A stretch of DNA of 64,000 nucleotides from Candidatus Aenigmatarchaeota archaeon (GTDB lineage Archaea > Aenigmatarchaeota > Aenigmatarchaeia > GW2011-AR5). Of the stretch, positions 48,846 through 50,061 are shown piece by piece. How positions within the stretch are numbered: the stretch's first letter is position 1; each line of letters begins with the position of its first letter. The position numbers and the translations under genes are program-made. The DNA lies in the NCBI GenBank assembly GCA_016180945.1, contig JACPAG010000001.1, positions 133,856-197,855 on the forward strand, given 5' to 3'. Below the pieces are notes generated by a model, which saw nothing but the letters and a program-made list of their open reading frames with translations, did not search any database and had not been told where the DNA came from.

Positions 48846-50061
48846 ATGAAAACTTATGTTACAAGCGAAAGCGTCACAGAGGGTCACCCGGACAAAATCT
48901 TTGAGTGAAATGCTCAGGATGTCCAAAATCTGTGACCAGATAAGCGACGCAATTCTTGATGAATTGTTTAAGCAGGACCCGTATTCCCGTGTTGCTGTGG
49001 AATGCCTTACAACAACCGGTCTGGTTGTCGTCGCCGGTGAAGTCACTACAAGAGGCTTTGCAGATGTCCAGAAAATCGCAAGGCAGACATTGAAAGAGAT
49101 AGGTTACACAGACCCTACTTACGGCATAGATTGTGAAGACGCCGGCGTTCTTGTTTCCATCCATGGCCAGAGCCCTGATATTGCGCAGGGCGTCAACGAA
49201 GGCGAAGCAGCCGGCAAAGAATCCAAGGAACAGGGCGCAGGAGACCAGGGCATGATGTACGGTTTTGCAACCAGCGAAACGCCGGAACTGATGCCGCTTC
49301 CTATCATGCTTGCGCACAAATTAACAAGAAGGCTGTCTGAAGTGAGGAAAGCAGGTCTCATAGACTGCATCGGCCCGGACGGAAAATCTCAGGTCACGAT
49401 AGAGTACGACGATGGCGTCCCTAAAAGGGTCGAAGCAGTTGTCGTGTCTGCCCAGCACAAGCACGATGCAGCAATAGATAACGTAAGAAAAGAGATACTG
49501 GAAAAAGTGATAAAACCCGTATGCGGATACATGATGGACGAAAACACAAAAGTTCATATAAACCCCACAGGTAAATTTGTGATAGGAGGACCGGAAGGCG
49601 ACTCCGGCGTTACAGGCAGAAAAATAATTGTTGACACGTACGGTGGCATCGGCCGCCACGGGGGCGGCGCATTCAGTGGCAAGGACCCGACCAAAGTCGA
49701 CCGTTCAGGCGCATACGCGGCAAGATACGTAGCCAAGAATATTGTAGCAGCCGGCCTTGCGGACAAGTGCGAGGTGCAGGTTGGCTATGCAATCGGCGTT
49801 GCCAAGCCGCTGGCAGTTAACGTGGACTGCTTCGGCACCAACAAGATACCCGAAAGCAGGATAGTCGAGCTCGTGAACAGGCACTTTGACCTGAGGCCAA
49901 AAGCCATTATTGAAATGCTCAATCTCAGAAGGCCGATATTCAGAAAAACGACATGCTACGGGCATTTCGGCCGCAACGACCCGGACTTCACTTGGGAAAA
50001 GACAGACAAGGCGGAAATATTGAGAAGAGAAGCGCTGGCCATTAAAGAAGCCGCAGTATAG
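48846..50061 (+). CDS. metK: S-adenosylmethionine synthetase (bacterial type), split by a 31-nt intron: join(48846..48895,48927..50061), 394 aa
   Basis: Spliced N-terminus [30 protein letters not shown] and GGGAFSGKD motifs; GGTGA SD before the ATG. Confidence 0.92.
48896..48926 (+). other. BHB-type intron in the metK mRNA
   Basis: Central helix GGAC/GTCC, two AAA bulges, inner hairpin, in-frame TGA if unspliced. Confidence 0.85.

Follow-up and report, generated by a model that had tools for sequence, protein, structure and literature searches.

The window analysed here is a 64,000-nucleotide (nt) stretch of the genome of an Aenigmatarchaeota archaeon, a member of DPANN (987,615 bp, 9 contigs, 83.65% complete), and carries a bacterial-type S-adenosylmethionine (SAM) synthetase gene, metK, that is interrupted near its 5' end. 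Translation of the open reading frames (ORFs) of the window shows, as the initial annotation had described, that the frame opening with ATG at 48846 runs for 20 codons to TGA at 48906–48908, and that the remainder of MetK (ICDQISDA..., 377 amino acids (aa), TAG 50059–50061) lies in a different frame. Excision of the 31 nt at 48896–48926 reproduces the proposed 394-aa MetK frame (17 + 377) across the junction GAC AA^A ATC TGT GAC (^, joint) and restores GHPDKICD. All three bacterial-type Pfam domains (S-AdoMet_synt_N/M/C) were matched, the N-terminal one from profile position 16 only. Exon 2 aligned with solved SAM synthase (E = 8e-141) from residue 18–20 (18 in chain 1fug_A), so that the 17 residues of exon 1 account for the missing N-terminus; its 377 codons hold no further disruption. 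We assign a probability of about 85% to the reading of 48896–48926 as a bulge-helix-bulge (BHB) intron in the metK pre-mRNA.

The predicted RNA fold places both exon–intron boundaries within a BHB-like motif (Table 1). As a single sequence, segment 48870–48950 reached a minimum free energy (MFE) of -25.7 kcal/mol (z = -2.81), a value equalled by 3 of 200 shuffles. The MFE fold contains the outer helix GGUCAC/GUGACC, two unpaired C, the central helix, a 3-nt A bulge and the inner hairpin, whose helix begins with A48897–U48920 and abuts bulge 1. Each bulge lies 3' of its central-helix strand, which is the canonical BHB orientation, and was also read by eye in a tRNA of the window with a 46-nt intron at 37/38. 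A 4-bp central helix with a 3-nt bulge on either strand is the hallmark of a BHB motif, whereas the strict hBHBh' form would place a closing helix directly next to bulge 2, where metK has none. The spacer from outer helix to bulge 2 is AUCU, and that from outer to central helix on the other strand is CC; because of this offset, the motif is relaxed and HBh'-like rather than strict hBHBh'. The helix, AAA bulges, inner hairpin and exon pairing of the initial annotation were thus all recovered, but the outer helix is not adjacent to the 3' bulge.

Table 1. Features of the metK locus and of other intron-bearing genes in the window
Feature	Position	Strand	Remarks
Shine-Dalgarno-like GGTGAT	48837..48842	+	3 nt 5' of metK ATG; putative function
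metK exon 1	48846..48895	+	16 codons + AA of Lys17
Outer exon–exon helix, 5' strand GGTCAC (Gly-His codons)	48882..48887	+	pairs with 48932–48937
Central 4-bp helix, 5' strand GGAC	48890..48893	+	pairs with 48921–48924
5' bulge AAA	48894..48896	+	predicted cut after 48895; MFE and consensus folds
Intron, 31 nt (predicted)	48896..48926	+	holds in-frame TGA 48906–48908
Inner hairpin AUCUU-U-GAG / CUC-AGGAU	48897..48920	+	MFE: GAGU pairs with GCUC, 5-nt loop GAAAU
Central helix, 3' strand GTCC	48921..48924	+	folds and covariation
3' bulge AAA	48925..48927	+	predicted cut after 48926; base 48927 completes Lys17
metK exon 2	48927..50061	+	last base of Lys17, 377 codons, TAG
Outer helix, 3' strand GTGACC (Cys-Asp-Gln codons)	48932..48937	+	pairs with 48882–48887
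tRNA	55646..55766		46-nt intron at 37/38
16S BHB intron	61842..61891		50 nt; strict hBHBh', 10-bp outer helix
16S BHB intron	61931..61960		30 nt; no adjacent outer helix
16S BHB intron	61970..62028		59 nt; no adjacent outer helix
ORF in 16S insert	62306..62953	+	215 aa; LAGLIDADG_3, E = 3.7e-08

The same site is interrupted in relatives. A search of 70 genomes of the order with the exon 2 protein allowed 45 metK N-termini to be read: seven, including that of the window genome (G000), are interrupted exactly here (the others being G008, G027, G033, G051, G054 and G058), 33 are uninterrupted and five carry one extra T. The exon 1/intron boundary pattern was found in nine of 371 genomes of the phylum, in four families, and the reversed control pattern in none; beyond the order, both matches proved to be metK introns followed by complete ORFs (G100, family f13, 32 nt; G176, family f23, 31 nt). 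Six of eight matches in metagenome contigs bear the intron. L176 is a divergent, uninterrupted metK, and L172, in which exon 1 is followed by unrelated AT-rich sequence with no exon 2 within 300 nt, was left out of the count. A broader contig pattern scan overlooked G027 and G033, both recovered by the genome search; among the matches listed, 5 of 119 stretches were metK introns and the others were mostly unrelated bacterial sequence. Altogether 12 distinct intron-region sequences were aligned (alignment A2), with lengths of 30 nt (seven), 31 nt (three), 32 nt (one) and 36 nt (one).

Cutting after the second bulge base yields GHPDK[I/L/V]CD in 11 of 11 sequences, and in the twelfth, of 32 nt, the same rule restores a frame that continues into the full ORF. 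Left unspliced, all 11 meet an in-frame stop within four codons, and the twelfth behaves alike. Since 30 and 36 are multiples of three, a frameshift does not explain those inserts. The 5' bulge is AAA in all 12 sequences; the 3' bulge, read in 11, is AAA (8), ATA (2) or TGA (1), its third base always being the A that the split Lys codon AA^A needs. The introns fall into two types, AUCUUUGAG-like and AUUUUCUAG-like, that are at odds with the taxonomy of the genomes; a single genus includes both, one in G051 and the other in G058. A MetK tree built on 25 full-length rows, leaving out partial and intein-split genes, requires at least three changes of the intron state, a pattern compatible with an old intron and subsequent losses as well as with lateral spread. 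The tree is itself discordant with genome families: for example, G051, of f3, and G005, of f1, are sisters (support 100/99), and G045, likewise of f3, falls together with g17 of f1. This suggests that metK has been exchanged among these archaea. Internal stops suspected in metK of G016 and G003 did not appear in their tblastn alignments (query residues 1–366 and 1–369, respectively).

Compensatory changes support the central and inner helices. Over 14 safely placed pairs in 12 sequences, 97.6% of 168 cells are paired, compared with 22–43% when the 3' partner is slid by 1–3 columns; the central helix alone reaches 97.9%. None of 500 shuffles attained the observed pairing or covariation score, a count not to be read as a probability. 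The first central-helix pair (columns 9–49) occurs as GC (6), UA (4), AU (1) and GU (1), its 5' base being the free third position of a Pro codon, and the third inner-helix pair (columns 18–43) as CG (9) and UA (3). From the alignment alone, RNAalifold predicted identical outer, central and inner helices. The comparison of metK across relatives suggested in the initial annotation thus brought out compensatory changes, and with them signs of purifying selection on the exons.

Between intron-bearing metK genes, pN is 0.07–0.26 and pS 0.56–0.87 (nonsynonymous and synonymous differences per site; synonymous sites saturated or nearly so), and dN/dS, the ratio of the corresponding rates, is 0.077 (G027/G033) and 0.098 (G000/G027) where dS is computable. 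These values, with the exon 1 pattern that follows, support purifying selection on both exons. In exon 1, none of the 12 conserved residues changes in any of 13 sequences that bear the intron, and codons 6–12 vary freely at synonymous positions (Ser appears in six codons), whereas codons 13–17, part of the helices, hardly change (GGT 12/13, CAC 13/13, GAC 12/13, AAA 13/13). Intron-bearing rows are enriched in the codons that build the outer helix: GGTCAC occurs in 11 of 12 of them and in 8 of 33 plain ones; TGT encodes the Cys in 11 of 12 of the former, while plain rows use TGT 9 and TGC 17 times; and all six outer-helix pairs are possible in 10 of 12 versus 6 of 33. The introns of G000 and G008 (L005) differ by one indel despite an exon pS of 0.78, so that the intron sequence is far better conserved than synonymous sites.

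This pattern bears on whether metK is a decaying pseudogene, or was inactivated by an insertion resembling a miniature inverted-repeat transposable element with target-site duplication. Such an origin would account for the broken frame and for an insert that is an inverted repeat flanked by the 8-nt direct repeat CAAAATCT (48893–48900 and 48924–48931); since the repeat occurs twice, any 31-nt deletion inside it gives an identical product. It sits poorly with 377 codons free of other disruption, with dN/dS of ~0.08–0.10 at saturated synonymous sites, and with an insert conserved at one site across four families in the sole metK found. Moreover, a CAAAATCT-type repeat is missing in several relatives (e.g., L015, L016 and L048), and a blastn-short search for a second copy of the intron in the genome returned the self match only. 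We regard inactivation as extremely improbable. The insert is present in the DNA, and its absence there is what the initial annotation had named as fatal to an intron: a contig spanning 48700–49100, free of gaps and of differences (0 of each), was obtained from each of four DNA runs, which belong to a single groundwater study and probably stem from the source sample.

In another reading the two parts are never joined and translation restarts at the in-frame ATG 48919–48921 within the insert, read as ATG TCC AAA ATC..., giving MetK without its first 17 residues and leaving exon 1 as a relic or a small peptide. An in-frame ATG (GTG in one sequence) does stand two codons before exon 2 in intron-bearing sequences. 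Its letters, however, are dictated by pairing (A–U and U–A from the inner helix, followed by the central helix's G), and the 31-, 32- and 36-nt forms all preserve the exact BHB geometry. Exon 1, with its start codon, its GGTGAT and 12 residues held invariant amid synonymous change, does not look like a relic; GGTGAT/GGAGGTGA-like motifs also precede the metK start codon in relatives. Since exon 2 aligns from residue 18 of 1fug_A, the restarted product would lose residues 1–17, including His14, Asp16 and Lys17, which are established catalytic residues of MetK. The odds of such a restart seem exceedingly slim.

The genome is rich in introns, and its 16S rRNA gene provides an internal comparison. 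Its three BHB introns listed in Table 1 share the central-helix/3-nt-bulge geometry of the metK intron and, at 30–59 nt, its approximate size; those of 30 and 59 nt resemble metK in having no adjacent outer helix. Excision by the second-bulge-base rule gives GCCAGCC^GCCGCGGTA^ATAACC, recognisable by its primer sequence as the universally conserved 515–535 region of 16S, and two of the three introns lie inside this region. Of the seven 16S junctions for which the initial annotation had claimed this rule, our check extended to these three introns, all of which obey it. Because the 16S rRNA is interrupted by a 30-nt relaxed BHB intron, the cell must already splice such introns in an essential RNA. 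Among the 16 tRNA matches (RF00005) in the genome, 10 of the 15 full-length ones measure 85–184 nt, and many tRNA genes are probably interrupted enough to escape standard models. A strict BHB scan of tRNA loci (at most one G–U pair in the central helix) missed most tRNA introns; ARAGORN with introns allowed made many doubtful long-intron calls and was not used. Further 16S inserts were seen, e.g., ~40 nt near 62108–62164. Another, of ~700 nt, contains an ORF with a LAGLIDADG_3 match (Table 1) and is by these features a large rRNA intron with a homing-endonuclease gene; it distorts the cmscan alignment of the 3' half, and the 16S gene may extend past 63187.

These untranslated RNAs also matter for a translational alternative, in which peptidyl-tRNA-Lys leaves AAA 48894–48896, skips hairpin and stop, and lands on AAA 48925–48927. 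T4 gene 60 and the mitochondrial byps are bypass elements of this kind, with a short untranslated gap, a stop and a hairpin between matching codons. The window offers the same ingredients: a gap, a stop soon after take-off, a hairpin, and matched take-off and landing codons within the CAAAATCT repeat. In 3 of 11 sequences, however, the landing codon does not match (ATA in two, TGA in one), whereas the BHB rule restores Lys in all. Hopping has no need of a covarying 4-bp helix just before both bulges, a BHB-specific trait, and the 16S introns, never translated, use the identical geometry. We give bypassing next to no credence.

The genome encodes both enzymes on which splicing of the metK mRNA was proposed to rely. 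The tRNA splicing endonuclease EndA was detected with PF01974 (98.7 bits, G000:C3) as a 205-aa ORF with both EndA domains (L002:1189–1806), and the ligase RtcB with PF01139 (545 bits, G000:C2, at about 35520–36764). The best solved match of EndA is 1a79, the alpha4 (homotetrameric) enzyme of M. jannaschii. The intron-holding families f1 and f3 have one ~200-aa EndA per genome and no additional larger EndA-like gene. The catalytic domain is 77–97% identical across the order, far above the conservation of MetK, and a conserved insertion of six residues (LKKGPKSAKEH) flanks its catalytic His. Family f7 (e.g., G042:C2:64588–65061 and G048:C16) has, beside the ~200-aa EndA, an extra frame of ~400–485 aa with two tRNA_int_endo matches, which may be a multi-unit (epsilon-like) endonuclease. 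A single metK copy was detected, and no archaeal-type SAM synthetase (PF01941) was found in the 83.65%-complete genome, in agreement with the expectation that no second intact SAM synthetase exists. With no other such enzyme found, methyl-donor supply would depend on tRNA-type splicing.

From these elements the following course can be proposed. In the metK transcript, GGAC would pair with GUCC as the 4-bp central helix, which carries an AAA bulge on either strand and is flanked by the intron hairpin on one side and by the slightly displaced exon–exon helix GGUCAC/GUGACC on the other. EndA would cleave after the second base of either bulge; RtcB would then ligate the exons and probably circularise the intron. 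Ligation would recreate the Lys17 codon (AA^A) and with it an uninterrupted 394-aa bacterial-type SAM synthetase with its catalytic GHPDK intact, while an unspliced mRNA would give only a 20-residue peptide. Cleavage and ligation on metK RNA are what we infer from conserved sequence and structure. One variant of this scheme has EndA cleaving the motif with ligation rare or conditional, so that the element would be a cleavage switch lowering metK mRNA rather than a constitutive intron. A BHB motif in the 5' untranslated region (UTR) of the H. volcanii HVO_1309 mRNA is, according to a 2020 paper, processed and affects expression (PMC7714728), and the near identity of the G000 and L005 introns would also suit a regulatory element. 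Without ligation, though, the only metK found would yield no full-length MetK, and the exact preservation of frame and Lys17 in 12 of 12 sequences points to selection for the ligated product. We consider a switch of this kind very unlikely.

Several observations count against an intron spliced in this manner. The outer helix is set off by CC on one strand and by AAAAUCU on the opposite one, which in effect puts bulge 2 in a 2 x 7 internal loop; in the MFE and RNAalifold folds the A-run permits a 5-bp register of the central helix; and in one type of intron (L173/L174) that helix contains an A.C mismatch. The sequences compared are relatives, and the shuffle statistics overstate their independence. 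All 11 sequencing runs located for the stretch are of DNA type, with 0 of RNA, and a genome 83.65% complete leaves room for a second metK or a second EndA subunit. The enzyme itself raises further difficulties, as this genome and families f1 and f3 have a sole ~205-aa alpha-type EndA, with Ala where the catalytic Lys of the M. jannaschii enzyme aligns (RLAHNIRA[R/K]MLWA). The main tension is between a relaxed motif with an alpha-type EndA and the statement, in PMC5829648, that only (alpha-beta)2 and epsilon2 endonucleases cut relaxed motifs. The relaxed BHB introns in the 16S gene of the same genome argue that this EndA copes with such motifs. In view of the recurrence, pairing and codon evidence, it is very likely that 48896–48926 is a genuine BHB intron of an mRNA, a novelty for both metK and DPANN.

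The cbf5 pre-mRNA intron of Crenarchaeota, reportedly described by Watanabe in 2002 and Yoshinari in 2006, is the known precedent. According to the 2020 paper, confirmed archaeal coding-sequence BHB introns are limited to cbf5 in Crenarchaeota (PMC7714728), and among such cases the reference list of a 2025 paper still includes only the cbf5 work (PMC12397907). As described by Yokobori 2009 (PMC2738675), the cbf5 intron is short, BHB-type and often of relaxed motif, its distribution is patchy with gain and loss, unspliced genes are mistaken for frameshifts, and mRNA introns were tied to a heterotetrameric endonuclease. The metK intron resembles it in being a short coding-sequence BHB element with relaxed motif, patchy distribution and a frameshift-like appearance when unspliced. 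It differs in host gene, in lineage (DPANN/Aenigmatarchaeota instead of Crenarchaeota) and in enzyme context, a single ~205-aa alpha-type EndA in place of a heterotetrameric endonuclease; and while cbf5 splicing has been demonstrated experimentally, metK splicing is predicted. An identity with the cbf5-type intron is ruled out by the host gene, and cbf5 (TruB_N) in this genome is one uninterrupted 321-aa frame without stops. In the papers searched, none joined S-adenosylmethionine synthetase with bulge-helix-bulge, and nothing was found on mRNA introns in DPANN or Aenigmarchaeota. On this basis metK would be the second archaeal protein-coding gene, after cbf5 alone, whose expression is known to require tRNA-type splicing.

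With archaeal rRNA and tRNA BHB mini-introns, the metK element shares the 4-bp helix, the 3-nt bulges on the 3' side, the inner hairpin and the second-base cut. Being in an mRNA, its splicing competes with translation and must keep the reading frame, and the exon part of its motif is built of codons, where a synonymous-codon bias is visible. In the H. volcanii HVO_1309 element, too, the splicing endonuclease acts on an mRNA and not on a tRNA or rRNA; that element lies in an untranslated leader, whereas the metK intron interrupts the codons of a catalytic motif. If the intron is real, an mRNA intron occurs in the gene of a central metabolic enzyme, and does so in a DPANN lineage whose single endonuclease is of alpha type; tRNA-type mRNA splicing would then be no crenarchaeal oddity, and its link to heteromeric endonucleases would not be strict. 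To gene callers these metK genes will look truncated or frameshifted, so that SAM synthesis may be missed in metabolic reconstructions of Aenigmatarchaeota and counted, wrongly, as lacking. The element would also be a compact natural substrate (~60 nt, 12 natural variants) for studying what a relaxed BHB requires in mRNA.

A genome-wide scan gave no sign of a larger class of such introns. In G000, the motif (a helix of 4 bp, bulges of 3 nt, 5 bp or more in the inner helix, 14–120 nt) combined with ORF joining gave 20395 matches and 7597 joins; with a mirrored geometry as control, the figures were 20022 and 7306. No excess appeared at any stringency of the inner and outer helices (e.g., 1853 vs 1797 in the control), nor among joins of two long ORFs (107 vs 93). 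A heuristic for short first exons based on start codon and Shine-Dalgarno motif returned 9 candidates vs 16 in the control and lost metK itself. The suggestion that frameshifted pseudogenes more widely hide such introns therefore found no backing in a scan that has little power, the metK intron being only one of 1853 matches: it lends no support to many further mRNA introns and gives no evidence against a few.

The five metK genes with one extra T (L021 in G020, L027 in G036, L029 in G032, L036 in G065 and L042 in G046) span four genera and two families. They read CAT CCT TGA CAA R, against CAT CCN GAC AAR in other genes, at the site matching window 48885–48896, and invariably use CAT, CCT and TGC. 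Read in frame, each stops at TGA, and MetK can be made only by a +1 shift at CCU UGA C. In each genome the extra-T gene is the only metK found with the exon 2 query, the G046 copy being also intein-split; in the MetK tree, the three full-length ones are each sister to plain genes. From its sequence, CCU UGA C resembles a site for programmed +1 frameshifting of the prfB/antizyme type; we know of no description of programmed +1 frameshifting in an archaeal metK. Other metK genes are split by ~1.3–2 kb (G014:C5, G038:C4, G046:C8, G058:C134 (L033) and G176:C113 (L180)) and remain one open frame of 779–850 aa. The G176 insert begins with C directly after HGGGAF; that of G058 follows GAGDQG, ends ...VHN^S and has a LIGDG motif. 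These inserts look like inteins at two different catalytic motifs, and G058 and G176 bear both the BHB intron and a putative intein in metK.

A broader reading would make the metK intron a conserved, laterally spreading gate at the GHPDK codons that ties methyl-donor supply to the RNA-maturation capacity of EndA and RtcB, since the rate at which these enzymes process the mRNA would limit how fast MetK is made. Consistent with it are the conservation of the intron above synonymous sites, the discordance of intron types with taxonomy, the +1-shift metK in five relatives at the same motif, and the putative inteins in other catalytic motifs. We hold this to be doubtful. If it were true, the EndA, alpha-type and homomeric and equipped with a basic loop specific to the lineage, would represent a new broad-specificity class, one that makes mRNA introns possible beyond Crenarchaeota.

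Upstream of metK, positions 47672–48757 (+) hold a gene whose 361-aa product matches the Lamin Tail Domain twice and has long linkers rich in Thr, Ser and Ala.

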